From assembly GCA_046563655.1 (NCBI GenBank), contig CM102285.1, positions 6,696,001-6,760,000 on the forward strand: a stretch of DNA of 64,000 nt, in the 5' to 3' direction. The notes under the pieces are model-generated. The model had not been told where the DNA came from. It saw only the letters and a list, made by a program, of their open reading frames with translations, and ran no database searches. This DNA is from Yuukianura sp. NJ FZ-2021 (lineage: Eukaryota). How positions within the stretch are numbered: the stretch's first letter is position 1; each line of letters starts with the position of its first letter. A program made the position numbers and the translations under genes. This document shows positions 1 to 62,430 of the stretch, piece by piece.

Positions 1-789
1 CCAAAAAGTCATTCTGGGCTATCGGAGATGTCAAAATTGCAAACCGAAATTATGCTTGTGAAAGCCCATCTGAATTGTTCCAAGCTCAATTTTTCCCCAA
101 AAAATCATTTTTTTTTCATTAAAAACTCCCCAAAAAGTCATTCTGGGCTATCTGAGATGTCAAAATTGCAAACCGAAATTATGCTTGTGAAAGCCCATCT
201 GAATTGTTCCAAGCTCAATTTTCACCAGAAAATCATTTTTTTTCATTAAAAACTCCCCAAAAAGTCATTCTGGGCTATCTCAGATGTCAAAATTGCAAAC
301 CGAAATTATGCTTGCGAAAGCCCATCTGAAGTGTTCAAAGCTCAATTTTATCACCAAAAAATCATTTTTTTTTCATTAAAAACTCCCCAAAAAGTCATTC
401 TGGGCTATCTCAGATGTCAAAATTGCAAACAGAAATTATGCTTGTGAAAGCCCATCTGAAGTGTTCCAAGCTCAATTTTTCACCAAAAAATCATTTTTTT
501 TTCTTTAAAAACTCCAAAAAAGTCATTCTGGGCTATCGGAGATGTCAAAATTGCAAACCGAAATTATGCTTGCGAAAGCCCATCTGAAGTGTTCAAAGCT
601 CAATTTTATCACCAAAAAATCATTTCTTTTTTCATTAAAAACTCCTCAAAAAGTCATTCTGGGATATCCGAGGAGTCAAAATTGCAAACCGAAATTATGC
701 TTGCGAAAGCCCATCTGAAGTGTTCAAAGCTCAATTTTTCACCAAAAAATCATTTTTTTTCATTAAAAACTCCCCAAAAAGTCATTCTG

Positions 790-1783
790 GAGCCGAGAGC
801 TGTCCTTCATGATTAGATTAGGCAATAGCTTAATCTACTCCTAAGCAAAAGAAAAACCGGGTTTTATTTGGAGATCATACTCCAAAAAGAGTTTAGATTA
901 AGCTAATTTTTGGCTTAGCTTTAATCCAACTTTCCGTTCCCCCACGTAGCGCGCCGGACAGTGTTCCCAGTGGAAACTTTCTCTTAAGGGAGACGACTGT
1001 GAGTTCAAAACCTGCAGCAGATGTAATTTTTTTTATTTTGTCCGAACATGCCCACTCATATAATATTGCCTTTCAGGGATGGCAGGTGACCCCAACATGT
1101 CCAAGAAAGGTCAAAGGTCAAGCCAAATTCGGTTGACCCCACGTGACCTCAAATATTAACTGCACAAAAGGGTTTCCTTAAGAAAACACTCATCCTACGC
1201 ATAACACAAGAACATGCGTGACTCAGCTGAGGTCCACAGGTAATTCTTAACTTGAAGTGACCTGACCTTTGACCTTGAAGGAGTGTAACTAGCTCGTGCA
1301 TAGCATTGAACAACAAATTGAGACAGACCAGCATTAAAGCACTCATTTTAGATGCCAAGTTGGGTCATTCGCTGTTGACCTCACGTTTGACCTCAACAAG
1401 GGGTGGCGGGAATATGTATCGTACACAAAAAAGATTATCTAGTTAATGGAAACAAGTTTTGGGTAGGTCATTTCATAGGTCAAAGGCGTCAAATTCGCCA
1501 ATAAACGAAAGTTTTTGCCTTAACCCAAAAGATAAAGCTGGTCCGGAGTGGTTTTTGTTTTAGCATCAAAATCTGATTAGATTTGTGAGGTGTGATCTCT
1601 GAAAATCTTAAACCGTATTAACTTTCCGGGTGATCACACCCTAATCACTTTTTTTTGTGTTAACACAAGATTATCTCGAGTTTAGCGAAAATCAGAAAAA
1701 AAGAGATTAGCGGTTTTGGTGTGCTCGTCGTTTCTTCTTAATCCGGAAATAAATTTCGCTAATACAGGCACAGCTCTCGGCTC
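790..1783. mobile_element. Non-autonomous DNA transposon with 14 bp perfect TIRs and 3 bp CTG target site duplication (PIF/Harbinger-like), inserted in the satellite
   Basis: Left end gagccgagagctgt (790-803) is the exact reverse complement of right end acagctctcggctc (1770-1783). CTG lies at 787-789 and 1784-1786, and removing the element restores gtcattctgggctatcc. No transposase ORF. Superfamily is inferred only from the CWG TSD. Confidence 0.88.
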
Positions 1784-3089
1784 CTGGGCTATCCGAGGAG
1801 TCAAAATTGCAAACCGAAATTATGCTTGCGAAAGCCCATCTGAAGTGTTCCAAGCTCAATTTTTCCCAATAAAATAATTTTCTTTCCATTAAAAACTCCC
1901 CAAAAAGTCATTCTGGGATATCCGAGGAGTCAAAATTGCAAACCGAAATTATGCTTGTGAAAGCCCATCTGAAGTGTTCCTAGCTCAATTTTTCACAAAA
2001 AAATCATTTTTTTTTCATTAAAAACTCCCCAAAAAGTAATTCTGGGCTATCTCAGATGTCAAAATTGCAAACCGAAATTATGCTTGTGAAAGCCCATCTG
2101 AATTGTTCCAAGCTCAATTTTTCACCAAAAAATCATTTTTTTTCATTAAAAACTCCTAAAAAAGTCATTCTGGGCTATCCGAGGAGTCAAAATTGCAAAC
2201 CGAAATTATGCTTGCGAAAGCCCATCTGAAGTGTTCAAAGCTCAATTTTATCACCAAAAAATCATTTTTTTTCAATAAAAACTCCCCAAAAAGTCATTCT
2301 GGGCAATCTGAGATGTCAAAATTGCAAACCGAAATTATGCTTGTGAAAGCCCATCTGAATTGTTCCAAGCTCAATTTTCACCAAAAAATCATTTTTTTCA
2401 TTAAAAACTCCCCAAAAAGTCATTCTGGGCTATCTCAGATGTCAAAATTGCAAACCGAGATTATGCTTGTGAAAGCCCATCTGAAGTGTTCCAAGCTCAA
2501 TTTTTCACCAAAAAATTATTTTTTTCATTAATTACTCCTCAAAAAGTCATTCTGGGCTATCTGAGATGTCAAAATTGCAAACCGAAATTATGCTTGTGAA
2601 AGCCCATCTGAATTGTTCCAAGCTCAATTTTTCACCAAAAAATCATTTTTTTTCATTAAAAACTCCCAAAAAGTCATTCTGGGCTATCTCAGATGTCAAA
2701 ATTGCAAACCGAAATTATGCTTGCGAAAGCCCATCTGAAGTGTTCAAAGCTCAATTTTATCACCAAAAAATCATTTTTTTTCATTAAAAACTCCCCAAAA
2801 AGTCATTCTGGGCTATCGGAGATGTCAAAATTGCAAACCGAAATTATGCTTGTGAAAGCCCATCTGAAGTGTTCCAAGCTCAATTTTTCACCAAAAAATC
2901 ATTTCTTTTTTCATTAAAAACTCCTCTAAAAGTCATTCTGGGATATCCGAGGAGTCAAAATTGCAAACCGAAATTATGCTTGTGAAAGCCCATCTGAAGT
3001 GTTCCAAGCTCAATTTTTCACCAAAAAATCATTTTTTTTTTCATTAAAAACTCCAAAAAAGTCATTCTGGGCTATCGGAGATGTCAAAA

Positions 3090-3487
3090 AAGTTGAAGAA
3101 ACCACAAAGTCCTTAGAAGTACAGCTTGAAAACTTATTCATTCAAACAATCCCAGGTATCAAGTCTCCAATAGTTGAAGAAGCGTATCGGCTCGGCAAGT
3201 CAGTGCCATCCTACACAAGCAAGCCAATTAAAATAAGATTCAAGTCGGTAGAAGTGAGAAACGTCGTTTGGAAAAATCGTCAATTGCTAAAAACTCACCT
3301 CCCAGACCTCAACTGGAACGAAGACCTTCCACTGGCTACAAGGAAAAGAAGAGCTAATGAACGAGAATCCGGAAATCCGGCTCCATCCCAACCAGCTCGC
3401 ATCCCATCTTCGTCACAACCTAAACGATCATTTTCAAATGCTGCATTCGCTAACAGTCAACTTATACCTCGCTCTCCGCCCAGCTGA
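3090..3487 (+). CDS. LINE ORF1 protein, C-terminal portion (5'-truncated)
   Basis: Translation AYRLGK...KPIKIRFKSVEVRNVVWKNRQLLK...NEDLPLATRKRR resembles the RRM/CTD-type ORF1 of CR1/L2-group LINEs. The listed ORF 2999..3487 begins in satellite sequence. Confidence 0.75.
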
Positions 3488-3550
3488 CAATTAACAAAAG
3501 CAGTCGATGCTAAAAATCAAATTACATCTAAACCAAAACTTCACATCAAA

Positions 3551-6319
3551 ATGGCTCACATCAATTCGCAATCCTACTCCAACAAATTTTCCGAAATCAC
3601 CACTCTTCTGCTGGATCATGACTTAGACATTCTTTGCATCAGCGAAACATGGCTGAAACCTAACGTCGCTGAACTCCTACCAATTGGATACACCATGGTT
3701 CGAAATGACAGAACTTACAAGACGGGCGGTGGAGTCAGCATTTTAATCAAATCACATCTAAAAATTTTGAAGAGTTTCAAATCAGCTGATATTAGTACAC
3801 ATCACATCGAATTCCTTTACTGCAAGGTCCAGCTAAATTTCAACAAAAGTTTCATCGTGGGCTGCGTTTACCGTCCACCCAATCATTCTTCGATACTCAT
3901 CAAACAAGACTGTAAATCATTTGGGAACTCAATTGAATCAATAAAATCACCTAATTGTCCTATGTACATTTTTGGGGATTTTAATTTGCATCAGGGAAAG
4001 GAATACGATAACTTCAGCAGCCGACTCCAGAAATATTCCCTAAAGCAGCTGATATCATCTCCCACAAGAGGTCAACAGATACTAGATCTTTTCATTACTG
4101 ACGTCAGCGACAGGGTATCAAAGATAGAGAACCTTGAAGTCAATCTTTCTGATCACAACTTATTAATAGCGGAAATAGAATCAATTCGACCTACTCCGTG
4201 CAAAAAAGAAATTGTTTTCAGAAGTTTTCGTTCAGCAAATTATGAACTCATTGGCTCCGCAACGATAATGACCCCTACTCTAGATCCTTCACTGGACGTC
4301 GAAGAGCATCTCAAACATTTACAAACCTCAATTAAAAATATTTTCGATACTCACGTGACACAAAAATCAAAAATTATCAACGACACTAAATCAAATCGTA
4401 TCCTAACAGAAGAAACGAAATCACTGATGAAGAAACGGGACCACTTCAAGAAACACGGACAAACTTCGGCATATTATACTCAGCGGCTTAAAGCATTCAA
4501 AAAATTGGTGAAGACTTCCGTTAGTCGTGACACTTCAAACTACTTCAACACAATTATTGAAAAGGCAAACGTACATCAAGCAGTCAATCAGTTTTGCCGG
4601 ATAAGCAAAAAATCTCATTCCGTTTCTGACTTCAACCTAGAAGTGGATGAAGCCAACATCCACTTCTCTAAAGTCCCATCGACAATCTGCACATCAGAAC
4701 CAACTCAGCCTGGCAACCTACCTCAAGCGCAAGTACCATTGACATACAGAAAAGTTTCATCATACGACGTATCAAAAGCCTGGAATAAGATGAAGAAGCG
4801 ATCTTCAATGTCAGAAGATACTTGCGGTATTAGCCCAGCAATGCTCAATCTCACAATTTCTGCCCCAAACATCAATGAAAATGTTCAAAACATTGTCAAC
4901 TCTAGCATCATCAATGGAACAGTTCCACTTGCACTCAAACAATCAAAAGTTATTCCAATCCCTAAGTGCAAGAATCCGGACTCTCTCAACGATTTTCGAC
5001 CAATTTCAATCTTGCCTGTCATCTCAAAAATTCTCGAAAGATGCGTGTTCCAGCAGCTCCAATCACACTTCGAACGAAATCATCTACTTCATCCAAACCA
5101 ATTTGGTTTCCGGAAGGGATACTCCACAACACACGCGCAAATTGCAATCACAGACTTATTGTATCAAGGGTTCCAGTCACAGAAAATTACTGCAGTAGTA
5201 ACACTAGACTTAGCGAAGGCCTTCGACTCCGTTAGCAGAAAACTCCTACTGCAAAAACTGTCCTGGTACGGAGTTGATAAACACTGGTTCGAGTCGTACC
5301 TAAGCGATCGGAAACAGCAAGTATACTGGAATGGAAATTTCTCTAAAGAACGGATAACGTTAAGTGGTACTCCGCAAGGGGGAATTCTATCTCCTCTATT
5401 ATTCAGCATAATGATGAACGATCTTCTATATTCCTTCAGCCAACATTTCAAGGAGGTGCTGATTCTTTTTGCCGATGACAACACACTGATTGTACAAAGC
5501 TCTGCTACGGAACTATCCGAATTCAAACTGCAAGTCGAGAAGTGCATTAATTTCATTGTTCAATGGATAAAGAAGAATCATCTAAGTATAAATCCAGGAA
5601 AAACAAAAATCATGCTGTCAGCTCAACCAAAAATTTTGAATGCGGCAGGACAGATTCCATTTCTTGTATCCGATGTTGAAATTCGTCCATCAAATTGTAT
5701 CACAACTCTCGGTTTCACCATCGACAAATTTCTAAAATGGGACGAACACATCAACATAACCTCAAAAAGATGTTTCTCCACGATCGCTACGCTGTACCCC
5801 CTCCAACGGTTCCTGGCACCTAAAAACAGAAAAACACTGATGGAAGCTTACGTCCTATCCAAAATGGGATACATGTGTGAGATATGGGGCCGAGCCAGCA
5901 AAACCAATATCAAAAAAATGGACAGAGTTGTAAGATGCGCTGGGAGATATGTCTTGAAGAAGAGGAAGTTTGAGCATGTAAAACTTGACATCACGACTGA
6001 ATTAAACTGGCTCTTTCCAAAGCACCTCTGCAATTTTCGTCTAGCCATCCTATCGTCTAAAATTACTCGAGGAAACCCATTCATTGAATACTTCAACGAC
6101 TATTTCAAGGAAGCTGACGATCTCCATTGTAGCAGAACAACCAGAAAGAATAGGACCGTAGCAATCAACCAAAAATCTCTTCACCCACTTTCATTCAAGG
6201 CCCTTGGACACTGCACACTGTCAATGCTACCAGACGAACTAAAATGCCATACACATCGATCCGGCTTCCAACAAACACTAAAAAACTATTTTCTCGAACT
6301 ACAAAAATCCGAATGCTAG
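3551..6319 (+). CDS. LINE ORF2: apurinic-like endonuclease plus reverse transcriptase, 922 aa, uninterrupted
   Basis: APE motifs HINSQS, CISETWL, GGGV, VYRPP, GDFN, LDL, SDHN. RT motifs FRPISIL, QFGFR, DLAKAFDSV, GTPQGGILSPLLF, FADD, NPGKT, LG. Confidence 0.97.
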   Translation: MAHINSQSYSNKFSEITTLLLDHDLDILCISETWLKPNVAELLPIGYTMVRNDRTYKTGGGVSILIKSHLKILKSFKSADISTHHIEFLYCKVQLNFNKSFIVGCVYRPPNHSSILIKQDCKSFGNSIESIKSPNCPMYIFGDFNLHQGKEYDNFSSRLQKYSLKQLISSPTRGQQILDLFITDVSDRVSKIENLEVNLSDHNLLIAEIESIRPTPCKKEIVFRSFRSANYELIGSATIMTPTLDPSLDVEEHLKHLQTSIKNIFDTHVTQKSKIINDTKSNRILTEETKSLMKKRDHFKKHGQTSAYYTQRLKAFKKLVKTSVSRDTSNYFNTIIEKANVHQAVNQFCRISKKSHSVSDFNLEVDEANIHFSKVPSTICTSEPTQPGNLPQAQVPLTYRKVSSYDVSKAWNKMKKRSSMSEDTCGISPAMLNLTISAPNINENVQNIVNSSIINGTVPLALKQSKVIPIPKCKNPDSLNDFRPISILPVISKILERCVFQQLQSHFERNHLLHPNQFGFRKGYSTTHAQIAITDLLYQGFQSQKITAVVTLDLAKAFDSVSRKLLLQKLSWYGVDKHWFESYLSDRKQQVYWNGNFSKERITLSGTPQGGILSPLLFSIMMNDLLYSFSQHFKEVLILFADDNTLIVQSSATELSEFKLQVEKCINFIVQWIKKNHLSINPGKTKIMLSAQPKILNAAGQIPFLVSDVEIRPSNCITTLGFTIDKFLKWDEHINITSKRCFSTIATLYPLQRFLAPKNRKTLMEAYVLSKMGYMCEIWGRASKTNIKKMDRVVRCAGRYVLKKRKFEHVKLDITTELNWLFPKHLCNFRLAILSSKITRGNPFIEYFNDYFKEADDLHCSRTTRKNRTVAINQKSLHPLSFKALGHCTLSMLPDELKCHTHRSGFQQTLKNYFLELQKSEC

Positions 6320-9300
6320 AAATTCATGTAAATTCATTCCAAATTTAATATATCAAAAATTTAAACAATTTCAATTTTTATATTCAATTTCTTTTCAATT
6401 TTATATTCAATTTGTAAAGCAACGCTATTTTCATTCTTAAAGTCCCCCATTAATATTAGTCACAATTGTGTAAAACTCAAGCATTCTATCATTTCTTTCA
6501 CACACATATCCATTTATTCTGAAAAACCCGAAACTTCGGGAGAATAAATAAATCAAATCAAATCAAATCAAAGCCCATCTGAAGTGTTCCAAGCTCAATT
6601 TTTCACCAAAAAATCATTTCTTTTTTCATTAAAAACTCCTCTAAAAGTCATTCTGGGATATCCGAGGAGTCAAAATTGCGAACCGAAATTATGCTTGTGA
6701 AAGCCCATCTGAAGTGTTCCTAGCTCAATTTTTCACCAAAAAATCATTTTTTTTCATTAAAAACTCCCCAAAAAGTCATTCTGGGATATCCGAGGAGTCA
6801 AAATTGCAAACCGAAATTATGCTTGCGAAAGCCCATCTGAAGTGTTCCTAGCTCAATTTTTCACAAAAAAATCATTTTTTTTCATTAAAAACTCCCCAAA
6901 AAGTCATTCTGGGCTATCTCAGATGTCAAAATTGCAAACCGAAATTATGCTTGTGAAAGCCCATCTGAATTGTTCCAAGCTCAATTTTTCATAAAAAAAT
7001 CATTTTTTTTTATTAAAAACTCCTAAAAAAGTCATTCTGGGCTATCCGAGGAGTCAAAATCGCAAACCGAAATTATGCTTGCGAAAGCCCATCTGAAGTG
7101 TTCAAAGCTCAATTTTTCACCAAAAAATCATTTTTTTTTCAATAAAAACTCCCCAAAAAGTCATTCTGGGCAATCTGAGATGTCAAAATTGCAAACCGAA
7201 ATTATGCTTGTGAAAGCCCATCTGAATTGTTCCAAGCTCAATTTTTCACCAAAAAATCATTTTTTTTTTCTTTAAAAACTCCCCAAAAAGTCATTCTGGG
7301 CTATCTCAGATGTAAAAATTGCAAACCGAAATTATGCTTGTGAAAGCCCATCTGAAGTGTTCCAAGCTCAATTTTTCACCAAAAAATCATTTTTTTTCCA
7401 TTAAAAACTCCCCAAAAAGTCATTCTGGGATATCCGAGGAGTCAAAATTGCAAACCGAAATTATGCTTGTGAAAGCCCATCTGAATTGTTCCAAGCTCAA
7501 TTTTCACCAAAAAATCATTTTTTTTCATTAAAAACTCCCCAAAAAGTCATTCTGGGCTATCTCAGATGTCAAAATTGCAAACCGAAATTATGCTTGCGAA
7601 AGCCCATCTGAAGTGTTCAAAGCTCAATTTTATCACCAAAAAATCATTTTTTTCATTAAAAACTCCCCAAAAAGTCATTCTGGGCTATCGGAGATGTCAA
7701 AATTGCAAACCGAAATTATGCTTGTGAAAGCCCATCTGAAGTGTTCCAAGCTCAATTTGTCACCAAAAAATCATTTTTTTTTATTAAAAACTCCTCTAAA
7801 AGTCATTCTGGGATATCCGAGGAGTCAAAATTGCAAACCGAAATTATGCTTGTGAAAGCCCATCTGAAGTGTTCCAAGCTCAATTTTTCACCAAAAAATC
7901 ATTTTTTTTCATTAAAAACTCCAAAAAAGTCATTCTGGGCTATCGGAGATGTCAAAATTGCAATACCGAAATTATGCTTGTGAAAGCCCATCTGAAGTGT
8001 TCCAAGCTCAATTTTTCACCAAAAAATCATTTCTTTTTTCATTAAAAACTCCTCTAAAAGTCATTCTGGGATATCCGAGGAGTCAAAATTGCGAACCGAA
8101 ATTATGCTTGTGAAAGCCCATCTGAAGTGTTCCTAGCTCAATTTTTCACCAAAAAATCATTTTTTTTCATTAAAAACTCCCCAAAAAGTCATTCTGGGAT
8201 ATCCGAGGAGTCAAAATTGCAAACCGAAATTATGCTTGCGAAAGCCCATCTGAAGTGTTCAAAGCTCAATTTTTCACCAAAAAATCATTTTTTTTCATTA
8301 AAAACTCCTAAAAAAGTCATTCTGGGCTATCCGAGGAGTCAAAATTGCAAACCGAAATTATGCTTGCGAAAGCCCATCTGAAGTGTTCCAAGCTCAATTT
8401 TTCACCAAAAAATCATTTCTTTTTTCATTAAAAACTCCTCAAAAAGTCATTCTGGGATATCCGAGGAGTCAAAATTGCAAACCGAAATTATGCTTGTGAA
8501 AGCCCATCTGAAGTGTTCCTAGCTCAATTTTTCACCAAAAAATCATTTTTTTCATTAAAAACTCCCCAAAAAGTCATTCTGGGCTATCCGAGGAGTCAAA
8601 ATCGCAAACCGAAATTATGCTTGCGAAAGCCCATCTGAAGTGTTCAAAGCTCAATTTTTCACAAAAAAATCCATTTTTTTAATTTAAAACTCCCCAAAAA
8701 GTCATTCTGGGCTATCGGAGATGTCAAAATTGCAAACCGAAATTATGCTTGTGAAAGCCCATCTGAAGTGTTCCAAGCTCAATTTTTCACCAAAAAATCA
8801 TTTCTTTTTTCATTAAAAACTCCTCTAAAAGTCATTCTGGGATATCCGAGGAGTCAAAATTGCAAACCGAAATTATGCTTGTGAAAGCCCATCTGAAGTG
8901 TTCCAAGCTCAATTTTTCACCAAAAAATCATTTTTTTTTTCATTAAAAACTCCAAAAAAGTCATTCTGGGCTATCGGAGATGTCAAAATTGCAAACCGAA
9001 ATTATGCTTGTGAAAGCCCATCTGAAGTGTTCCAAGCTCAATTTTTCACCAAAAAATCATTTCTTTTTTCATTAAAAACTCCTCTAAAAGTCATTCTGGG
9101 ATATCCGAGGGGTCAAAATTGCAAACCGAAATTATGCTTGTGAAAGCCCATCTGAAGTGTTCCAAGCTCAATTTTTCTCCGAAAAATCCATTTCTTTCAT
9201 TTATAACTCACCAAAAAGTCATTTTTTTTTTCATTAAAAACTCCTAAAAAAGTCATTCTGGGCTATCCGAGGAGTCAAAATCGCAAACCGAAATTATGCT

Positions 9301-40500: not shown

Positions 40501-43500
40501 GGAGTGAAAATGAAAGTGAAGTGATGTTGTAGTGAAACTGTATGCCTAATTTATACCTGGTATAAACCAGGCGTTACAGAGAAACTAAGTACAGAGAGTT
40601 AGACGTCAAAGTGGCTCCCACTATTATGGTTCGATTGAGTTGATTTGATATAACACAGTTTTTACCAAGTAGTTGATCAGCTTCTTGAGTACATCCTCGT
40701 TCATCATTATAAATTCCTTCGATGTACTTCCGTCGGCAATATTAGCGAGCATGCACAGCGCTTGTTCCTTTACATCAGCTCCATAGTCACTTTCCAATGT
40801 TAAAATTGCCGCCTAATCATGTATAAATGAAATAAAATAACATCAGCACTAAATGATTAGACATGGTGTTATTTAGAGGAGAATGAAGATGAAACTATGC
40901 ATTAACCTGCATTATTTCTGTTCCGTACAAGTCCATGATGTGGTCGATATGTTTAGGCGTTGTTAGCAAATTTCGCAGAAGTCCGAGTGTTTTCATTACA
41001 ACTGTTACGTCTGAATCGGACAGAAGGCGGAATAGCTGATCCTTTCCTATGTCTCGTAGTGACTTTAAAATCTCTGTCTTCAGACTTTCATCTGCTTGGA
41101 ATGCTACATTCTACAAATCATATTCAAAGGGATACAAATGTTGCACATGCTTCAACTGGTGATATTAAATCGTACCATCAACGCCCATATCCCATTAATT
41201 CTGAGTTGGTTATCAGGATGCCTAGTCAGTTCTGAAAACTTCTCCAGTGCTCCTTCGTTTAACACATGCTCTTTCGCTGGCGAAAATTCCAAAATTAAGT
41301 TGCAGACTGTAGATGAAACGACATTCAGAATTTCATCATTTGAGCTTTGAAGTAGCTTCATCAATGGCTTCCACACGCTATGATCCTGTATTCGCCAAGC
41401 AACAAATATTTTTTTTTAAAAACATAATATATTAAAACAAAAATTTTAAAGTACTATCTATTAAGTAAGTGCCTTATGTGTTGTTTCGTTGCAGAAGTAA
41501 AATTAAAATCTACAAAACTAGCAGACTTGCCCTTGAAAGTGTTATTACCGTAGAAAGTTTCTATTGAAAAAACCTGCTTAGATTATGGCATGGAAAGGAA
41601 TCAATCCATGAAAATGCTTTACAAACTTTCAGTAAAAAATACGCTTCATGTAAGAGTAATTTTCTTGAGATACAAAATGCTAGCGTCCATTACGGTTGTA
41701 ATGTTTTTGAGTAAGTTTTCGTGAAATGTGTAGATTTTTTGAAAAGTTACACACATAACCATTCTTTAAAATTGACGAAACTTTGATAATGGATTAATGG
41801 TACTATGAAGGGACAATTTCTTTGTAAAAAATGGTGACCATAGCAGCGTTGACCGCTGAAGGGTTATGCGGGTCAAAGTCGCCATTTTGGAAAACTTGCC
41901 CGCTACGTATCTCCGAAATGGCTCAACCGATTTGGTCATCTTTGGGTTATCTTAAGTCTTATCTTAAGTATTTTGGTCATCTAAGGAATTCTTTTGGTAC
42001 TAAGATGAGCCAAATCGCTTGAGCCGTATCGGAGATACGTGGGCATAGGGGGCAAGATATAAAAATGGCAATTTGGCCGCACAAAGCTCGACAAAGGTCA
42101 ACACTATGTCATTTTTTAGCGAATTTTGTTTTTAATTGTGGGTACCTACTTCAAAATTGAAAAATTTGAAAAAGGTAAAAAAAATGGTGATGGTTTTGGT
42201 CATTTACACATTTCACGACACGAACAGTCACTTTATTATGAATTCAGAACAAATGCTCTCACCCTCACCTTGAACGTAGTACGAAGTAGGTGAACAGATC
42301 GTGACAATGAGTGAAGACAATGCACAGCTCCCAGTAACACAGATTCGTTCGAATCGTCAAGCGCCGCCACAAGGCGATCCATTAGGTGCTCTCGCTCTAT
42401 AATTCTTTTTCGAATTCCTTCATCATTCGCTCCCAATGCACCAAAAGCCTAGAAATGAAGAAAGCTCAATTGAATCTCAACCCGCTAGAGACTTCAACAA
42501 ATATACAAAATACTCGGTACACCGAGACGACGATCGGACTAAAATTCCGACTGTTTAGCTCCATTTAACACAAAGAAAAATGTTTTAACAATGTCAATCG
42601 CAATACTATCACCATGAATAATAATAATAATAATAATACTTAGTTGGCGTAATTTAGAAAACCAAAATTTCGCGTGATTTTCGATTTTATATGAATAGTT
42701 AGCTGTAATTTCGAATTGCACGTAGATGGCGTATACTCGCGTTTCAGTTTCATCGTTCTAACATATGAATAATTAATTACGAAAACTTTGTACTCACCCT
42801 AAATGCGGCATACACCAAATTAGGAGAAGGCGGAGCGTTTAAGGATTTGAAAAGCAGTGTTGAATTTTGTGATTTTAAGAAATCAGCCAAAGTTGGAATG
42901 AGATGGTTTGAATCCGCTGCTATCCTGCGGAACATCAAAACAGTAGGAAAAACGTATTGTAATTTGTAGCTAACATTTCTCGTAACATGCAATTGATGTC
43001 GTAAAAATCACACAGTAAGTATTTAGTATAATGTAAAAAATTTCCAGCGGTTACTGAGACTTAATACAAAAAACGTAAGCAGATACAATGAGAATTAAGA
43101 ATCAAACCTACGATTGCAACTCAGTATTGAGCTCAATGAGATAAGCCAGAGTTTCGGCCGCTCCAGCTCTAATTTCCTGATCATGCTCTTTGGCACACAA
43201 ACGCACAAGAGTGGGAAGTGCTTTCATGAGAACTCGGGGATCATCTGAGGCAAGGGCATTGCTTCGATGGAGATGCGTCAGAGTCCTGGCAACATTCAGT
43301 TGCAGTTCGACAGGACGATCCCTCGCCATGAGCCTAAGCAGTAAATCCGGAATACTTCGTTCCTCCCATCGTGTCTTTACTATAACAGCCGAGACTTGCT
43401 CGTTCTTGTGCGCCAAGGCAGATAAACATCCGACGGCCGGCATTTGAACTTTGAGGTATGATGACGTCAACAGAGCAGCCAAGTGGCGGATGACGTCGTA

Positions 43501-46500
43501 TTCCATTAACGCATCTTGTTGGTTGCGATTCTATACAATCAACAAATCAACCCTGAGCGTTAGGCTAAATTCGTGAACCAACATGATTTAGTACAACATA
43601 CTGCGTCTGTAAATTAACATTAAAGAGACGTAAAACCATCACACCTTGCAAGAATGACTGAGGATGGTAGAGACAGAGATTTGATTGGAGATTGAATGAG
43701 GACCCATGAGACCCAGTAGGTGCGGAATAAGTCCAGGGGTAGCAAAAAGTACTTCGGTTGGAGCGAAGTCGTGCCGAAATATTGTTGTTAGGCAACTGAG
43801 ACTGTACGAAATCAATTTTTCATCCGAACCCTCCAATACTGAAATAAAATTAAAAAATTAAATTAAAATTAAAAATGTATTACTGGTATACTTTGTATGA
43901 CTTGGTAACGCCGAAGGTCACCAACAAACACGAAAACTTCCCATCACATTTCTCATCATTTCTCAAGGTCTGTTGTTAGCTCCGGAGCAAAGCAAATGAA
44001 GAAGGCCAAATCATCTACTTATATAAAATCGAGACCCTGTTTATCTGTGTGTGTGTGTGTGTGTCCTGCTACTCCTCCGAAACTACTGGACCAATTTGGA
44101 CAAATGAGGTGTCCTTTTCTTCCTAAGGTCACCCCGAAGAGCATAGGCTATGTGACATCTTGACCTGTGACCTTTGACCCTTGACCTAGCGCAATGACCT
44201 CACAAAATCGTACCAAACACAGGCAAGTGACATGTCGTTCGAAAGCAGAGGCCAAATGCAGTCGATTGATGTATGACACATTGACCTGTGACCTTTGACC
44301 TTTGACCCAGACCGGTGACTTGACATAGAATTAAGCCGAACATAGGCATGTGATATATCATTCGAACGGGGAGGCTGAAAGAAGTTGATTGACGTATGAC
44401 ACGATGATGTATGACCTTTGACCCTTGACCCAGAGCGATGACCCCACATAGAATTAAACCACACCCAGAAATGCAATATATCATTCGAAAGGGGATGTCC
44501 AGTGGAGTGGATTTATGTATGACATGATGACCTGTGACTTCTAACCCTTGACTTAGCTCGGTGACCTCACAAGAAATAATCCAAGCATAGGCATCTACTT
44601 ATATAAAATCGAGGCCCTGCTTATCTGCGTGTCCTGCGACTCCTCTGAATTTACTGGACCGATTTGGGCAAACGAGGTGTCACTTTCTTCGCGAGATCAC
44701 CCCGAAGATTACAGGCTACGTGACATCCTGAACTGTGACATTTGACCCTTGACCTAGCGCGATGACCGCACAAAATCGTACTAAACATACCCAAGTTACA
44801 TGACATTCAAAGCAGAAATGCAGTAGAATGACGTATGACACATTGACCTGTGATCTATGACCCTTGACCCAGAGCGGTGACCTCACATAGAATTAAGCTG
44901 AACATAGGCATGCGTACGTTGTTCGAAAAAGGAGGGTCAAAGTCAAATGCAGTCGATTGATATATGAGATTGATCTGTGACCTTTGATCTATGGCGATGA
45001 CCCCATAAGAAGTACATACAAGCATGCCTGTGATATATCATTCGAAAGAGGCGGTCAAATGGACTCGGTTGACGTATGGCGCGTTAATTCTGTGACTTTT
45101 GGCACCAAAAAGAATTAAGTTCCACAGTAAATTGTTGTCTCTACATGTTAAACATTAATTGGATGGACGGGTAGTTTTAAGGGATTTCCGCCTGGGCAAA
45201 GCGTAGGCCGTAGGGTAGGATAATTTTCATAAAAATAGTCCAAGCGGGTCAGCATGTGTCTCGAGTGGGTAGCGGGTTCCCATAAGTGATACGTTTTTCT
45301 ATGTGTGTTCGTATACACTACCTCAAAAGCTAGCCCCGCTTTCACAAGCGGGTATCATACCTTGTCTAATCATAAGCTCCACCAGAGCAAAGCTAGACGT
45401 TCGTACTTTCAATTTAGAGATTCAGAAAATGTTCAAACGAACCACAACTCGACAACATAATTCGGAGTGATCCACAGACTGTTGGTCTAACAAATCAATC
45501 ATGGATGAAATGAGAAGGAGAAGCACGAGCTATGTTCCACCAAGTTCGAAGAACTTTTATATTAACTTTGACGCCTAAATCGCCAGTCGAGCTGTGCAAA
45601 TCATTTGTAGAGCCAACAATGGGGACAGGAATTCCAAATTACTTTATGCCTGTTATCAACAAACGACGTTCTGAACAACCAAATCTTAAAAAAGATTGTA
45701 AGTACTAAAAAGAAGAAGCAGATCTAATGCTGTCACATTTAAAATCGTGTGAATCTTATCCGATCTTCCAATCTAATTGGGTTTCTTTGGCCTTTCTTTA
45801 TGCAACAGTGACTCCCTCCGAGTTTTCTATATTTTCGGTGTCTCTCAACCTAGAAGAGTTACAAGTTCGAGGACGAAGTGCCAAAAAGTAAAAAATCAGG
45901 GAGAAATTGAATTGGATATTACTGCACTGGAACTGGATCGTTACAATGATGAAGTACGAATATATCGAAAAATACTCATCGATGAGTGCCGGAATTTGCC
46001 TTCGACGTAAATATTCCAATAGTAAAGTCCCTGACACTAACCTAACCTAACATATATTGCGTTCCTCAGGCCAACTGTGGATACAAATTTGGAAGTTTTG
46101 GAAGAAGCTTTTATGAAACTAATGTCGAAATGCCTACTATGGAACGGCAAAGTCTCAGCGACTAGCCGAAGGAGCCATACCTCTTCTGGTCTGGCTTTTG
46201 AACCGAAAACACTTCCAGGAACAGTTCCACATAAATCTCCTAAAAAGTCTCACTGAAATGTGCTGGACATCGGTTGGACTTAAAGACAAGGTTAGACTCG
46301 TGATAAACTAAACAACGACGAAAACAAATACATCAATTCTTTACATTCATTTTAACAATTAACTTGAGTTAAATACCTTGGATACGTTCTTTAAGTTTAA
46401 CAAATCGCATGGAACCAAAGTACTTTACCAGCATATGATCCAGGTGGACGTGAAGAAAAGATTGGCTTGTTGGCGTGTGTATGCAATGGCTATGATTTCA

Positions 46501-47704
46501 TGTGGATCCGCAGATATGATAATTGGCGTTAATTTATACCTAACGTCTAAAGTTTAATTTTTACTTGTCACAATAAAACCAAAATCCGTCTAAACTGCAA
46601 TGACCTCTGACTTAATACCTTGCAGGCAAGAAAAATCAAACGGTTGGAGGAGATCGTGGCAGAAATGTCTTTCGAGTATTACTGGTAGGACTGGCCTGTC
46701 AATTTTGGAATGGTTCTCCAGGGATTACTCTACGGACCAAACTCAGTTGCCCCAACCGTAGAACTCTTCCAGTTCCAATAGCCGAAGCAATCAAATGACT
46801 CACATAATGTCTCCATAGTTTTAGTTTTACCCTTTGGTCAGCAAACTCAATTCAATGCAAACCTAGTACAAAAGTTAAATGTTGTCACTTACCAGCAATA
46901 AGTTTTGGAATCGCGTTTGAACCCACCACCAACCTTACACTATCGGGAGTTCCTTTGACTAGTGAGCCAAGAGTAATGCATGCATCTTGCCTAACATTAC
47001 TTGGCAGGCTGACATCTCCAAGCAAGTTAAGAACTTGGGGTAGGATTCCTTCCGACAACGCTTGTGTCTTCTGCCGATTGCTCCCAATTATTGTATTCTT
47101 TAACTTTCTGCAACGATATGATACAAATGAATAAATAAATTGCATATAATAACAAAACAAAACAAAGTACTGGATGTCGACATACGCCAATGCTGGTTCC
47201 AGCTTACAAATCCTGTCAGGGCTAGAGCCGGTAGCATACAAGTCTGTGATGTAGGAAGGTGGTTGATAGCCCTGTCAGAGGAGGAACACAAATTAAAAAT
47301 TTGCCTTCTAAATAAAAGGGATGCGTCGACCACCCTTTCCTAAGAAAGAAGGTGCGAAATTATACAGCCCTGTTCAAACCGATTAAAATATGCGAGTGTT
47401 TTCTTATCAGTTGATTTGGCCACGCAGGTAACCGTTATATGGTAAGTAAATGGTAGGTCGTAGGTATACTAAATAAGTACTATGTACTTTGATAATTCCC
47501 TCTGAACTTTAGGGAATAATAACTTTCACCCTGCGTCCTTTACGGTCCAATCATCGTTTGCTAACAGCCTTTTAACTTATTGTCTACCATAAGAACCGAT
47601 TTCATTTAAATTTACAGTTCGCAAGTCCGAACCTGATTAGCGGTATGATTCTGAATTTGAATATCTCCATCTTTGCCAAATGTGTCCATCATTCCAAAAA
47701 TCAT
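37579..47704 (-). CDS. ARMC8: Armadillo repeat-containing protein 8 (CTLH/GID complex subunit), 12 coding exons
   Basis: Manually spliced GT-AG exons: 47704-47633, 47271-47186, 47107-46893, 43838-43645, 43530-43112, 42924-42798, 42448-42269, 41385-41176, 41110-40907, 40812-40666, 37857-37688, 37609-37579. Peptides [76 protein letters not shown] and [10 protein letters not shown] match ARMC8 as I recall it. Exon 1 is the least certain. Confidence 0.92.
38152..39259. mobile_element. Non-autonomous TIR element with ~135 bp imperfect TIRs and 8 bp TSD (P- or hAT-superfamily-like) in ARMC8 intron 10
   Basis: Ends catagag.../...ctctatg. Inverted similarity between 38152-38288 and 39111-39259. Direct repeat ttcctgct at 38144-38151 and 39260-39267. 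Confidence 0.88.
38457..38670. mobile_element. Tc1/mariner-type MITE nested in the 8 bp-TSD element
   Basis: TIRs c(a)gtaatggccctatcttagaaac / gtttctaagataaggccattactg, flanked by TA on both sides (38455-38456, 38671-38672). Confidence 0.75.
39274..39697. mobile_element. MITE-like element with ~45 bp imperfect TIRs and internal degenerate aattacaac repeats
   Basis: ggagtgcgccatttcatcgaatgaattacaac versus gttgtaattcattcgatgaaattggcaactcc. No TSD identified. Confidence 0.65.
39692..40372 (+). mobile_element. Merlin (IS1595/IS1016-like) DNA transposon deletion derivative
   Basis: ~120 bp TIRs (39692-39811 versus 40254-40372) enclosing a transposase C-terminal fragment. Exact termini and TSD are unresolved. 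Confidence 0.8.
40074..40250 (+). pseudogene. Merlin/ISXO2-like DDE transposase C-terminal fragment
   Basis: [30 protein letters not shown]...YLAHYMF matches the VNHS..FVD...G.HTNTIE..W...K signature of IS1595/Merlin transposases. Confidence 0.82.
41719..42217. mobile_element. Probable non-autonomous element with terminal and internal inverted repeats in ARMC8 intron 7
   Basis: tcgtgaaatgtgta / tacacatttcacga at the ends. Internal inverted repeat acgtatctccgaaatggctcaaccgatttgg / ccaaatcgcttgagccgtatcggagatacgt. Confidence 0.5.
44014..45364 (+). mobile_element. Non-autonomous Helitron-like element with a duplicated 5' end and internal ~120-130 bp repeats
   Basis: Starts A|TCTACTTATATAAAATC followed by a (GT)n microsatellite. 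Ends with hairpin cccgctt-tcac-aagcggg and then CTTG|T. Inserted between A and T with no TSD. A second copy of the 5' end starts at 44594. Confidence 0.75.
45530..46780 (+). pseudogene. Possible degenerate spliced gene nested antisense in ARMC8 intron 3, with one ARM-repeat-like peptide
   Basis: Plus-strand exon-like open frames with intron signals (gtaagt near 45698; gtaaat 46007 ... ctaac ... cctcag 46069; gttag near 46291; ttgcag near 46625). Peptide [13 protein letters not shown]...LLKSLTEMC. Requires a frameshift and contains an in-frame TAG. Confidence 0.35.
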
Positions 47705-48019
47705 TGTTCTGTTTACTTGCTGAACTACTACACCCCTCGTCGTCTTTTTAGAAATAGTAAAAAGAAATGAAGTCAACGTTCACTGTTTAAAATAAGTTTT
47801 TGTTTTGCCAAGAAAACAAGAGTTAAGAGTACGAAGTTCCCTGATTTCAACCCACCACACACAACACAACACGGGACTAACCAAATGTGTGAATTCTCTG
47901 AACTTTCAGACACGAGGGCGCGATCGCGCGGTAGCAATGGTAGACTGTACTAGTTGAACAGCAAGCAAGGCAGCAATACCTGAGAGGGATCCTGTAGGTA
48001 GGCCTTTATTTGTAGCTCA

Positions 48020-48418
48020 GGGCATTGACTTTTAACACACAAAATCAAAAAATTTAGATGTAACATTCGGGCATGGACTTTTAACACACAAAATCAAAAA
48101 ATTTAGATGTAACCTCCAGGCATAGACTTTTAACACACAAAATCAAAAATTCAAATCGTCACCTCCGGGCATTACCTTTTAACACACAAAATCAAAAAAA
48201 TTCAATGTAACATTCGGGCATGGACTTTTAACACGCAAAATCAAAACAGATTAAATGTAACCTCCGGCCATGGACCTTTAACACACAAAATCAAGAAATC
48301 TAAATGTAACATCCGGGTGTGGGTTTTGAACACAAATTCAAAAATTCAAATTGTAACCTCCGGGCATTACATTTTAACACACGAAATTAAAAAATGTAAA
48401 TGTAACCTACGGCATGTA
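48020..48418 (+). repeat. Minisatellite, ~49 bp unit, about 8 copies, between divergent ARMC8 and GLG1
   Basis: Repeated gggcat(g/t)gacttttaacacacaaaatcaaaaaatttagatgtaac(a/c)t(t/c)c. Possibly enclosed by short TIRs gagggatcctg (47984) and caggtatccctc (ending 48605). Confidence 0.9.
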
Positions 48419-48680
48419 CTGTTGTTTTACTGGCAATCCGCCCAGCCTGAAAAAGTAATGAAAGCGCCTGAAAATGGGCTTTTGGGATTCGCATTCGGAG
48501 GAGTCCTAAAGTCCTAAACTAAAATTCAGACGAATCAGAAGTTTAAGAGGGTGCAGAAGGTGAGAGTCAGAATTATCAGGGGATTCCGAGGATCAGGTAT
48601 CCCTCGGTAATTATCAATCACAGATTCACAGAAGGAGCGTCAGCTGTTGCGTTATGTTGGTGCTGTAAACTTTCCTTAGA

Positions 48681-51600
48681 ATGGCTGCTGTGGTGAGAAC
48701 TCGAGTACTGTTAGGTTGCTCTCGCCAGTTAATTCTCATAATAGTAATTACATGTCTGCTTGGCAATGGACATGGCAAAGAGGAGCAGAGTGATTCTAAC
48801 GGCGAGAAAAGTCTAATTCTTAGTAATCCGAGATGTCAAAATCAAATACCGCGATGTGAAGGAAATCGAACACCAACTACTGATTTGGAAGCTCTGGACT
48901 GCATACTTAACCATAAGGTTGGTACAAAATGATTGTAAGATGGTTGTTGGTATGGCGTAGCTTTGTCTAAATCTAAAAGGACATCAGCAGGAGTAAAGTG
49001 TTTCTGTTGTTGCAGAGGGACGAAGTAAAAGAAATCAACGAAGAATGCAATCATTCGTTGTGGATTTTTCGAAAATCACTTATGGAGACTCAAGGATTCT
49101 TGAATGCAGTTACCGCAACATGTCACGTCGAACTCGACAACATGAAGTGTGGAAAGAGCAATGTTGTCATGTGCGTGCTTGAGCAGAAGGAAAATATAAA
49201 GTCGTAAGGTTCAGAGTTCATTTTGCATTTTATCGAGTTGATATTTTACAAAGAGGTTCGGTTTTGTTAAGGTTAGGTTAAAAGCCATGTATAGCTAGCC
49301 GATTGTTTGCTTAACAAAAAGGAACGTCAATTGTTAATTCGTATGAGAATTATTAATATTAGTATGTCTGAAACCGTACGTTCGAATCTTTCATCCCGGC
49401 GAAAAGAAACAAAGTACAAAGTATTTGCCATTTTTAACTAAGCTTTCTTGACTCTGATTTTTCAAGGGAACACTGCCGTGATGAAGTTTCTGCTGTGGAA
49501 AGGGTTATGTTCTCAGATTATGCTGTGATTGGCAAGTTTGCGGATATATGTATGGAAGACATTCAAAACAATCTATGTGGAAGAGTGGAAATAGCCCCAG
49601 TTTCGGAGAAAGAATTTAAGGTAGTATTTAACGAGTGAAGGTAATTTGAAATGTCTTATTGTCAGTGCGATATCATAGAATCAAACACAATCTCCTTCTC
49701 GTTTACCTTCCAGTTTCTTCCAACATCTCAGGGCTCCACAATTGAATGCCTTTCAAAGGTAATTGCTAACGTTACCGAGAGCTGTGCCATAGAGATTCTA
49801 CGGGTTGCTGAACTCCAGGCGGATGATTACCATTTAGATCGGTAATAAGTCTGTCATCGGTCGAGACGAAAAATCATACATTAACGAGAAAAGAGAGCAT
49901 AAAATTTCTTGGACTAATTGGATTTAACAGAGCATTGTACTTCGCATGCCGCGATGACCGTGAAATTTTTTGCAAGGACATAGCCGCTGGAAATGGGAAA
50001 GTCTACCGATGTCTTCTAGAAAACAAAATGGAAAACCGAATGTCTGAAGGCTGCCGCAATCAGTTGCTTAGAAGGCAAAAGTTAACCGCGCAAGATTTTA
50101 AGTAAGTTTTCTCCCAAGTGTATGATGAGTCGATGAGCTATAATACTTTTGTTTAGCGCGCCGCCTAAATAGTATTCTATTTAGTGGCCTGCGGTAGTTT
50201 TTTTTTGTATTAAATGTGTAAATTATGAACGACTTTTCAGCCTTATTGTTCACAACCATTGTAAAATGCTTTTAGAGCAAGGAATTCTAGAGTTTGATTT
50301 TTGTTTTGAATTTGCAGGGTGTCATCTCTACCTTTTGCGTGCAAAGCTGAGATTAAAAAATTCAAGTATGTTTTATTTTTAATTTTTAAGAACCAACACA
50401 ATTCAAATCGCGGATACATTTTCAAATTAGTATGCTGCAAAAATGCTAATTCGGTTTGGGATTTCAGGTGTCGGAAAGGCACGGACACTGACAAGCATGT
50501 TCGTCTTTCTCAAATTCTGCTTTGTCTGGAAAATGCTGGACATAGTGGTCAGGCATTGAATGGGGAGTGTATCGAGGAGATTCGTCTTCAACGGAAGTCA
50601 CTAATGGAAGATTACCGAGCTACGCCAGAACTACTTAAGGACTGCAGCGCTGATTCCAGAAAGTTTTGCCCAAACTTGAAACCGGTTGCGGGTTCCACTA
50701 TTCATTGTCTTATGCAACACGCCATGAGTCCACGCAAGGTGGAACGAATCTCACCGAATTGCCGCTTACGGGTACGTTTCCAGCAAAGTCCATTTCTGGA
50801 TAAAGTTTTGCGCTGTAAGCAAATACAGGCACTAATTTGGCTTTGCTTCTCACTTAACTCAGCTAGAGGAATTGATGAAATTGACGGATGTGGGTGATAA
50901 TTGGAACGTCGACCCTGTGCTCAAAGACAAATGTCAGCAAGTTGTACTGGAGTCTAGTTGCCGCGATGTGCCCAACAATCAAGTTATGACTTGTTTGATG
51001 AACTTGTTAACGTCAGATACAATTGGAGAATCGGATGGGCATGCCATGACAGACGGATGTGAATCCGCTCTTCTCCAAATTCAGTATTTCATGACGCGAG
51101 ACTTTACAATAAACAGCGTTCTCTACGACAAATGCAAAGCCGATGCGACGAATATCTGCGGCGTCAATGAACAGTGGAATGTAGAAGTGGAAGAAGCAGG
51201 TCACAGCGCACAGTTTCCTAAGTCCGGATCTCTAATCCTTTCTTGCCTCTATCGAAACATGGTTTCTGTAAGCGACACTGACAAGACAGCAACATTTCGT
51301 TCTCGGTATTTTTACTATTATAGCTTTTCGTACCTTCAAATTACTCTACCGTATTTCAGGTTACTTCTGAGTGTGGGGAGCGAGTCCGTGAAGCGATGAG
51401 GGAACGAGCCCTGCTTGTCAGTCTCAATCCGGAGTTGGAACAAACTTGTTTGGAAGACTTGTCTGATCTTTGCTCCGACCAGACAAAACCAGGAGAAGAG
51501 TTAAAATGCTTGCAATCCAATTTGGAAAGTATTTCTAAGGGGTGTAAGGAATCGGTTGTCAGCATAACTGAGGTACGTACAATGTATAATGTATAAGATT

Positions 51601-54600: not shown

Positions 54601-55841
54601 GAGGTATGGAAATTCAAACAAAAATTTTGTTAAGGAGCATATCGCAAAACGACATTTGTAGCCTTAGATTGAAGATAACACAATGCCAATTGGCCAAGTT
54701 AAAGCATGTGACATGCGCGCGTCAACTTAAAACCCGTGTGAGCATACGCCATTGTATGAATTGAATTGTAGTATCAACATCAACTGTCATTGGATAAACT
54801 TAACGTGAGTTGTCAACTTGTAACGTGCCAATGGTTAATTGCATCAACATGTGAAATGCGGAGGCGATGTCTGGTTAGGCTCATTTATGCAAGGCATGAA
54901 GCCATTGACACAATGCACAAATTGACACGATTCCAGTCAACGCCATTTCAGTCGACGCAACACGTAGTGGATACAATGCAATTGTATCTTCTAAAGTCCA
55001 ATACCGTGGTCATATATCGAAGGCTGTGCCGTTGTGCGATATTTGTTCATCGTAAAACTAACAAGAACGTATATGCATAACACATTATTTAATGCTTGAT
55101 CATCTTCACTTTAGATTGAAAGCTGTCGTCCCAACTCCATTCTGGAATCTGACGTGCAGGGGTATGACAAAGGGAAGGTGGAAGAGTGTCTCAAAGACTT
55201 GTTTCGGCAGGATAGAATTCTGAATAAAGACTGCAAGGTTCAAGTTCGTCTACTCATACAATCAACAGAAATCGACATTCATGTTGACCCCATTCTTCAT
55301 CGAGCTTGTGTAAGTTCTCAAGGATAAAGCATACGTCATGTTTTTAAGTAAAGTACATGTTGATATTGTCCGCAGTCGATCGACGTCTTGAAACGATGTG
55401 ATGGAGTTCTGCCCGGAGAGGGAAGAGGTGAGTCTAAAGCCTTAACAATTAGCAATGTCGTGGTTCGTGTAATGATGTACCAGAGGATTTCTGAATACAT
55501 TATATAAAAACATTTAAAGTATGTAAAAATTAAAGTATATAAAAACATTTTCAGTGGTCGCTTGCCTCTTGAATGAGTATGACCGGGAGACTGGAGGCGA
55601 AGTGGGTCGTTTGAGTCAACAGTGTCGGAAGCTGTTGGGAGATCGAGCTCAACTATTTGAATTGGCAGGAAAGCCGATGATGGGAATGGAATCCATACAA
55701 GACCTGTACGTTCATGTGAAGGAGTCGTCTCATCGTAATTACTTCCTAGTTTTGGCTATGTCTGTTCTCGGTGTGATATTTGTCCTTGGACTCTTCTGTG
55801 GAAGATCCACAAGAAAGCGAGCAATGGCAAAGGAGAAGTAA
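48681..55841 (+). CDS. GLG1: Golgi apparatus protein 1 (MG-160/ESL-1/CFR1), multi-exon, cysteine-rich GLG1 repeats
   Basis: Signal-peptide-like N-terminus (exon 48681-48917). Cys-rich repeats SQGSTIECLS, EILRVAELQADDYHLDR, LYFACRDDRE, RLSQILLCLE, LMEDYR, SDLRLNPRLQKACGTDIPKIC..VPPGEGRILECLK. C-terminal TM helix YFLVLAMSVLGVIFVLGLFCGR with short basic tail and TAA at 55839-55841. Internal exon boundaries were not all resolved. Confidence 0.93.
52320..52636. mobile_element. Foldback/MITE-like inverted repeat in a GLG1 intron (~110 bp arms; weaker symmetry may extend to ~52150-52890)
   Basis: aaaactacgaccacacttttcgcattagcatacgctgcttcacatc versus gatgtggagcagcgtatgctaatgcaaaaagtgtggtcgtagtttt. 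Confidence 0.75.
52981..53044. repeat. Perfect 64 bp spacerless palindrome
   Basis: cgtagaaatgagtttaaaatcaggtaaacatg followed directly by its exact reverse complement. Confidence 0.95.
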
Positions 55842-62300: not shown

Positions 62301-62430
62301 GATGGTGAATGTTGAACTTCGTCTCCCTCAATAGAACGTGGTATGAGAAGATGACTGATAAAATAAAATAATTAATAAATTAATCACACTGAAGGAAAGT
62401 TGTCCCGGCCCGGTGCGGATTAGTAAATTG

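Follow-up and report, generated by a model that had tools for sequence, protein, structure and literature searches.

A candidate UGA readthrough junction between ORF1 and ORF2 of a LINE from Yuukianura sp., and the putative recoding signals of its relatives

It has long been asked how a bicistronic RNA is translated to give the product of the second open reading frame (ORF2) of a long interspersed nuclear element (LINE), and the accepted models, as set out in PMC5972666, are reinitiation or coupling. A LINE copy in a 64,000-nucleotide stretch of the genome of Yuukianura sp. NJ FZ-2021 (assembly GCA_046563655.1, contig CM102285.1, positions 6,696,001 to 6,760,000 of the forward strand; the whole stretch is called the window below, and position 1 is its first letter) raises this question in a particular form. 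The two ORFs of this element lie in the same frame and are separated by a single TGA that is followed by CAATTA. Is ORF2 translated from its own start codon after termination at this stop, or is the stop read through to give an ORF1-ORF2 fusion? Comparison with related loci suggests that programmed UGA readthrough yielding such a fusion is the best reading of the window family, and we regard it as probable. For the clade as a whole, the comparison tips on balance towards Gag-Pol-style fusion, with repeated switches between UGA readthrough (at UGA-CUAG or UGA-CAAUUA) and -1 frameshifting on U UUU UUA; these LINEs are apparently from animals, and most would have no ORF2 start codon.

The stop, its 3' context and the spacer

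The first-pass annotation had described a TGA at 3485-3487, a CAATTA and 21 in-frame sense codons leading to the ATG at 3551, and this description is exact to the base, with an intact ORF2 of 922 amino acids downstream. The stop-to-stop ORFs at 2930..3487 and 3488..6319 share one frame, with one internal stop in 1130 codons. The TGA is preceded by ccc agc, and the spacer ends in aaa ctt cac atc aaa before ATG GCT CAC ATC AAT. The same annotation placed an ORF1 upstream of ORF2. This ORF1 is present and is homologous to the ORF1s of related elements, but only its last ~132 codons belong to the LINE, as the codons at 2930-3089 of its frame are satellite DNA. With an N-terminal endonuclease and a central reverse transcriptase (RT) in one ORF, and an upstream ORF1 (as a fragment), the element has the features of a non-LTR (long terminal repeat) retrotransposon of the apurinic/apyrimidinic (AP) endonuclease (APE) type.

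The junction also has the features of a type I readthrough site, namely a stop followed by CAR-YYA and an open, in-frame endonuclease/RT ORF downstream. The type II context, UGA-CUA(G), is absent from the window stop, which has CAA instead. CARYYA is described as stimulating readthrough of UGA as well as of UAG (Firth & Brierley 2012, PMC3542737). Values given by Loughran 2014 (PMC4132726) bear on both contexts: readthrough at UGA-CUAG is efficient, and ~12 nt of 3' context suffices; UGA-CUA alone gives 1.5% readthrough and OPRL1 ~31%; and CAAUUA placed in the OPRL1 context in HEK-293T cells gives ~15%, with the change from CAAUUA to CUAUUA restoring wild-type levels. On both strands of the window, TGACARYYA occurs once, at this stop, while shuffles give 4.78 occurrences over ~128,000 positions. 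By base composition, CARYYA is expected after any given TGA ~0.2% of the time, and the chance of an in-frame, stop-free 21-codon spacer is ~8%. The hexamer was noticed after the fact, and therefore comparison with relatives is the real test.

Folding of the window sequence 3' of the stop predicts no RNA structure (z = +1.14 over 156 nt and +0.66 over 120 nt), and no pseudoknot or hairpin is predicted downstream of the stop in the window and 12 relatives (z from -0.62 to +1.9). By these fold z-scores, a type III stimulatory structure ~8 nt 3' of the stop is absent from the window. Furthermore, a search of positions 3000-6700 for a selenocysteine insertion sequence (SECIS) or any Rfam family returned no match at E up to 1. 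Consequently, the signal would be the linear 3' context alone. The lack of a SECIS match also argues against decoding of UGA as a standard amino acid or as selenocysteine in the host, which we find barely credible. That no in-frame element with a visible ORF2 end stops in TGA is consistent with such decoding; the element, however, has one TGA in ~1075 LINE codons, placed exactly at the domain boundary, and TGA ends ORF1 in seven out-of-frame relatives.

Under programmed readthrough, ribosomes passing the single UGA at the end of ORF1 would produce all or most of the endonuclease/RT as an ORF1-ORF2 fusion. The fraction that inserts an amino acid at the UGA and continues might be a few percent, and the Ser/Pro-rich tail of ORF1 and the 21-codon linker would then lead into the endonuclease. 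The leakiness of the stop would fix a low ORF2:ORF1 ratio, and the ORF2 protein (ORF2p) would be delivered in cis on its own RNA, as in retroviral Gag-Pol. The ATG at 3551 may add a second, initiation-based route.

Junctions of related LINEs

Protein databases contain 515 homologues of ORF2 at E <= 1e-10, the nearest being 24-34% identical, and no close family member is on record in them. The ORF1 fragment has ten weak matches among 1.8 billion representatives, with no clear fused form, and a Pfam search of this fragment gave no match. An alignment of ORF2 with 23 homologues retrieved 97 loci at 24-42% amino acid identity, 80 of them from metagenomes and 17 from contaminant contigs of metagenome-assembled genomes (MAGs). 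The latter (L081-L097) are filed under bacterial or archaeal MAGs, such as symbiont, vent and sponge-associated bins; the LINE ORF2s that they encode are eukaryotic, and misbinned host DNA is the likeliest source. Junctions were classified for the 95 sequences (94 loci and the window) with a usable N-terminal match, and the catalytic Asn was placed by tblastn. A locus was counted as in frame if a single stop separated an in-frame ORF2 from an ORF1 that had 100 codons or more or was open at its 5' end; this class holds 16 loci, the window included. ORF2 is in the -1 frame relative to ORF1 in 35 loci and in the +1 frame in three, while 41 loci have too little upstream DNA or no ORF1 and are unclassifiable.

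The stop and its 3' context are largely uniform in the in-frame class. TGA is the stop in 15 of the 16 loci, and every one of these 15 has C as the following base. The codon after TGA is CTA in 12 loci (CTAG in seven), CAA in two (the window and L035) and CAC in one. The stretch from the TGA to the catalytic Asn (10-30 codons) contains no ATG in 10 of the 12 TGA-CTA loci; in L011 and L086 an ATG is present at -6 and -7, respectively. The 38 out-of-frame loci serve as a control, and here CTA follows the ORF1 stop in 0/38 and the stops are mostly TAA (TAA 25, TAG 6, TGA 7). The difference persists when lineages are collapsed at 70% amino acid identity (61 lineages from 88 rows, one lineage with both arrangements being counted twice): CTA follows the stop in 10/13 in-frame lineages vs 0/21 -1 lineages (Fisher p = 2e-6), and the stop is TGA in 12/13 vs 4/21 (p = 5e-5). 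The exception among the in-frame stops is the TAG-G of L081, a MAG-contaminant contig in which, at positions 419-490, TAG-GAT stands between ORF1 and an in-frame ORF2 that has no ATG ahead of the Asn. As the gammaretrovirus-type context, UAG-G is possibly a third readthrough flavour in the group.

These results bear on whether the shared frame, the stop-free spacer and the hexamer are meaningless products of chance, which now appears highly improbable. The ~8% estimate for the in-frame, open spacer leaves room for chance, as do the 4.78 occurrences of TGACARYYA expected somewhere in the window and a first crude count that placed 20/60 loci in frame, exactly one third. Against this stand the ~0.2% expectation for CARYYA after one given TGA and the tight linkage of stop identity, 3' context and frame across relatives (p about 1e-5 to 1e-6).

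The relatives also address the concern, raised in the first-pass annotation, that the TGA is a private nonsense mutation. The single in-frame TGA is kept across relatives, and in the L058 family CAGCAG-TGA-CT is kept in 5/5 diverged copies, one of which has a 7-bp deletion just after it. Among the sequences compared, the stop is a conserved feature of related families, and CAA and CTA interchange after TGA, as seen in the sister elements L035 (TGA-CAATCT) and L086 (TGA-CTAACT). It is therefore improbable that the stop or its context is private to a dead copy whose active master has either a sense codon (and one long ORF) or TGA-CTA. The case for a private change is that one copy is seen, that this copy is 5'-truncated and under no selection, and that CAA and CTA are one base apart, as in L035 and L086. 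The window holds no second copy of the element, as blastn and tblastn match only the element itself. Contigs from one sample (three runs) show no other letter at 3485-3493, but the contig that covers the junction is from the same locus: this contig (record 1, 1652 nt, 0 differences across 3090-3891) extends beyond the 5' end of the element. Positions 3438-3553 are not covered by run X2. At 3740-3923 and 5822-6027, a few short contigs with variants and some loose ends hint at a small number of further partial copies, but none of them reaches across the junction. Against a private change, no further stop interrupts ORF2 over 943 codons, indicating that the copy is little decayed, and diverged copies retain the single TGA that 15/16 in-frame loci have at the junction. 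Moreover, a private change confined to the context would leave readthrough in place as the mechanism of the family.

The loci with ORF2 in the -1 frame carry a different signal. Heptamers of the form X XXY YYZ in the ORF1/ORF2 overlaps fall in the -1 slippage phase 20 times vs 2 and 3 times in the other phases (binomial p = 2e-6), and TTTTTTA (U UUU UUA), the HIV-1-type (human immunodeficiency virus) -1 frameshift heptamer, is in phase in 12/12 cases (p = 2e-6). An in-phase heptamer is present in 17/35 of the -1 loci, and an ATG in the ORF2 frame is absent from most of them; in the in-frame class, the 150 nt before the stop show no phase bias (5, 3, 3). In-phase TTTTTTA is found at L001, L003, L004, L005, L006, L008, L019, L042, L051, L057, L064, L067 and L088, and other in-phase heptamers at L043 and L045 (TTTTTTG), L056 (GGGAAAC), and L026 and L027 (AAAAAAG, CCCAAAA). 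The -1 relatives thus look like cases of programmed -1 frameshifting of the HIV gag-pol type, as judged from heptamer and phase. By eye, inverted repeats lie a few bases past the heptamer in L042, L051 and L088. It had been anticipated that related families would keep the frame, the single stop and CARYYA together. The frame and stop are kept in the 16 in-frame loci (TGA in 15), whereas 35 loci have moved to -1 and CARYYA is absent from the relatives.

The two arrangements meet in the clade that contains the window element, which comprises 17 rows and has a Shimodaira-Hasegawa-like approximate likelihood ratio test (SH-aLRT) value of 100 both in the 88-row tree and again in a 23-row posterior mean site frequency (PMSF) tree. 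Six of the other members have TGA-CTA (L014, L011, L017, L002, L010, L016), seven are -1 with an in-phase U UUU UUA (L001, L004, L005, L006, L008, L064, L003), and two are -1 with no heptamer (L007, L012). The last, L009, has TGA-CTG and only 9 nt upstream, too little to classify. A recoding signal, either TGA-CTA or the in-phase heptamer, is thus present in 13/16 of these members. On the 88-row tree the in-frame-TGA state requires seven changes, at least six of which are forced by well-supported branches, indicating that the in-frame TGA arrangement is recurrent. The ORF1 fragment of the window is homologous to the ORF1s (224-352 amino acids) of L006, L002, L019, L064, L001 and L004 (blastp E 6e-7 to 2e-3), and as these include in-frame and -1 relatives, the compared junctions are homologous. 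As far as sequence comparison goes, the heptamers of the sister families suggest that recoding of the fusion type is a property of the entire clade.

The ATG at 3551 and reinitiation

The position of the ATG at 3551 was probed with an AlphaFold2 model of the spacer and endonuclease (37-row alignment, mean predicted local distance difference test score (pLDDT) 89.7). The model is confident from the strand at residues 19-26 to the strand at residues 224-231, numbered in the translation from 3488. It agrees with the earlier suggestion that the ATG falls at the first APE beta-strand, as this strand (beta-1) is formed by residues 19-26 (HIKMAHIN), with the Met as residue 22; the strand begins three residues before the Met. 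Relatives align here as K-I/V-A/G-H-x-N, and at -4, the position of M in the window, those with longer N-termini have I, V or L. A Met at -4 is also found in L003, a locus with the frameshift arrangement, yet the ORF2 frame of L003 opens 42 codons upstream at the in-phase U UUU UUA. A Met at this position may thus be no more than a residue of the strand. Consequently, Met 3551 may be a hydrophobic residue of strand beta-1 and possibly a back-up start as well.

The alternative to a fusion is that a separate ORF2p is made from the AUG at 3551 by termination-reinitiation or internal initiation, the shared frame and the CAATTA being incidental. We consider this unlikely, and it is nevertheless a live rival because the Kozak context of the ATG is strong. 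For both L1 and SART1, PMC5972666 gives reinitiation as the published model. In the window, aaaATGg stands 63 nt past the stop in an unstructured, A-rich spacer, and the ATGs at -6 and -7 in L011 and L086 fit an initiation route. Several called homologues start 1-9 residues from the catalytic Asn, and two distant ones, P0041 and P0068, begin with MAHIN. The starts of these two were, however, chosen by a gene caller, and their upstream DNA is not visible. An overlapping or adjacent stop-start of the SART1 type (UAAUG) near a structure is absent from the window, where 63 nt separate stop and ATG and no structure is predicted. Reinitiation puts no constraint on the frame, the stop or the hexamer, yet TGA-CTA(G) is found at 12/16 in-frame and 0/38 out-of-frame junctions, and 10/12 TGA-CTA loci lack any ATG before the Asn. 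The Met at -4 of L003, far downstream of its heptamer, also stands against a start codon role, as does the AlphaFold2 model, in which a protein begun at Met 3551 loses the first three residues of strand beta-1.

Several observations weigh against readthrough in the window family. The hexamer, and even the stop, is seen in one dead copy only. CARYYA is found in 0/15 of the other in-frame loci, and the CAATCT of L035 does not fit it. The nearest relatives are just 30-42% identical and come from metagenome and MAG-contaminant contigs, and both trees leave the position of the window inside the 17-row clade unsettled. The ATG at 3551 has A at -3 and G at +4, and the MAHIN starts of P0041 and P0068 are what is expected of a real start. 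Furthermore, human L1 ORF2p is described as made by AUG-independent termination/reinitiation (Alisch 2006, cited in PMC5972666), and the lack of an ATG in relatives is therefore by itself no proof of fusion. The proposal that readthrough produces a fusion consequently fares unevenly: the pattern of TGA and frame in relatives, together with the usual lack of an ATG, favours it, and the particular hexamer on which it was first based is not conserved.

Genomic setting, parallels and implications

The LINE copy is one of two insertions (791-1783 and 3090-6569) in a 129-bp tandem satellite that makes up ~32 kb of the window, with a higher-order period of 258 bp and units that match at 88-94% (Table 1). 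The copy has no promoter and no 5' part of ORF1, its start lying inside ORF1, and is dead on arrival as a result of this 5' truncation; it is also young, with 943 codons open, and records the sequence of its master element. No target-site duplication flanks it, but the satellite unit lacks ~24 bp between 3089 and 6570. Small deletions of the target are common among 5'-truncated LINE insertions. A 3' hairpin with a short microsatellite in place of poly(A) is typical of CR1/L2-type LINEs, and the element has such a 3' end (hairpin at 6513-6548, (AAATC)4 at 6550-6569).

Table 1. Coordinates of the LINE copy, its junction and the surrounding satellite (positions in the window)
Feature	Positions	Strand	Basis
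129-bp tandem satellite	1..3089, again 6570 to ~36509		Tandem Repeats Finder; blastn of one unit against the window
LINE copy, 3480 bp, 5'-truncated	3090..6569	+	Satellite stops at 3089 and resumes at 6570
ORF1, C-terminal ~132 codons: folded domain, then Ser/Pro-rich tail	3090..3484	+	Translation
TGA, sole stop between ORF1 and ORF2, proposed readthrough site	3485..3487	+	Sequence, ORF list
CAATTA, CAR-YYA type I (tobamovirus-type) readthrough context	3488..3493	+	Sequence
Spacer, 21 codons in frame (QLTKAVDAKNQITSKPKLHIK); last three codons begin strand beta-1	3488..3550	+	Translation, AlphaFold2
AP-endonuclease domain	3542..4180	+	Pfam Exo_endo_phos, ORF2 residues 10-148, E 3.5e-9
First ATG in frame with ORF2; catalytic Asn 4 codons downstream; context aaaATGg	3551..3553	+	Sequence
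ORF2, 922 amino acids and TAG stop (6317-6319), uninterrupted	3551..6319	+	ORF list, translation, Pfam
Reverse-transcriptase domain	4970..5722	+	Pfam RVT_1, ORF2 residues 474-724, E 4.2e-40
3' untranslated region hairpin (TTTATTCT ... CCCGA AACT TCGGG AGAATAAA), adjoins tail	6513..6548	+	Sequence, fold
(AAATC)4 microsatellite tail, 3' end of the element	6550..6569	+	Sequence

The other insertion in the satellite (791-1783) is 993 bp long and, with inverted repeats at its two ends (GAGCCGAGAGCTGT ... ACAGCTCTCGGCTC), resembles a non-autonomous DNA transposon similar to a miniature inverted-repeat transposable element (MITE). Gene-like ORFs span 43108-62327 of the window. They include armadillo-repeat exons on the minus strand (43111-43530 and 46888-47274), three ORFs with Cys_rich_FGFR (GLG1-like) repeats on the plus strand (50310-52117), and a single-exon pentatricopeptide repeat (PPR) protein of 601 amino acids on the minus strand (60525-62327). 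Such a gene content points to an animal host.

Programmed readthrough and -1 frameshifting are textbook mechanisms for viruses and LTR elements, and several known systems resemble the window junction in part. The tobamovirus replicase (UAG-CAA-UUA; Skuzeski 1991, cited in PMC3542737) has the identical hexamer, a linear signal and a polymerase added to a more abundant product. It differs in that the window stop is UGA rather than UAG, in that the window element is a nuclear retrotransposon rather than a plant RNA virus, and in that the hexamer is not conserved in related LINEs. The vertebrate UGA-CUAG genes OPRL1, OPRK1, AQP4 and MAPK10, and the UGA-CUA of alphaviruses, as presented in PMC4132726, share their motif with the junctions of 12 related loci and are one base from the CAA of the window; the window itself has CAA, and the cellular extensions are short C-terminal tails, not a whole enzyme. 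The first-pass annotation had likened the junction to gammaretroviral gag-pol. The logic is indeed the same (an RT in frame with a structural or RNA-binding protein, one stop, a ratio set by leakiness), while the stop and context differ from the type III arrangement of UAG-G and a pseudoknot, no downstream structure is predicted in the window, and the ORF1 of the LINE is not Gag. HIV-1-type frameshifting is matched by the sister LINE families with U UUU UUA in the overlap; the window element does not use the heptamer.

Among LINEs, human L1 and Bombyx SART1 are likewise described as having a bicistronic RNA and rare ORF2 translation (PMC5972666). In these elements, however, ORF2p is separate and no shared frame is needed, with a 63-nt inter-ORF spacer in L1 and a UAAUG overlap in SART1. 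A published precedent is offered by the Group 3 LINEs of Paramecium, for which read-through was suggested (Guerin 2017, PMC5405496). These belong to a separate LINE clade in a ciliate host, and the portion of that paper dealing with them describes no readthrough motif or comparative test. The words "readthrough", "read-through" and "frameshift" are absent from the text of a 2013 review of non-LTR protein biogenesis (PMC3894237), and the Atkins 2016 recoding review mentions only HeT-A and TART among LINEs. In searches of the full-text literature, no readthrough or slippery-heptamer strategy for ORF2 was found for animal LINEs, the exceptions being the Paramecium suggestion and HeT-A/TART. The ATLN LINEs of Arabidopsis are said to have in-frame ORFs split by an amber codon.

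The clade-wide pattern is of more interest than the single window. If these elements do express ORF2 by recoding, the ORF1:ORF2 ratio would be hard-wired by a signal of 6-7 nt, and ORF2p would be born joined to the ORF1 protein, with a bearing on cis-preference and on assembly of the ribonucleoprotein. Annotation pipelines that require an ATG for ORF2 would mis-call such elements, and invertebrates would supply many natural test cases of UGA-CUAG, UGA-CAAUUA and U UUU UUA. Finally, the two recoding devices would be a case of convergence between LINEs and retroviruses.

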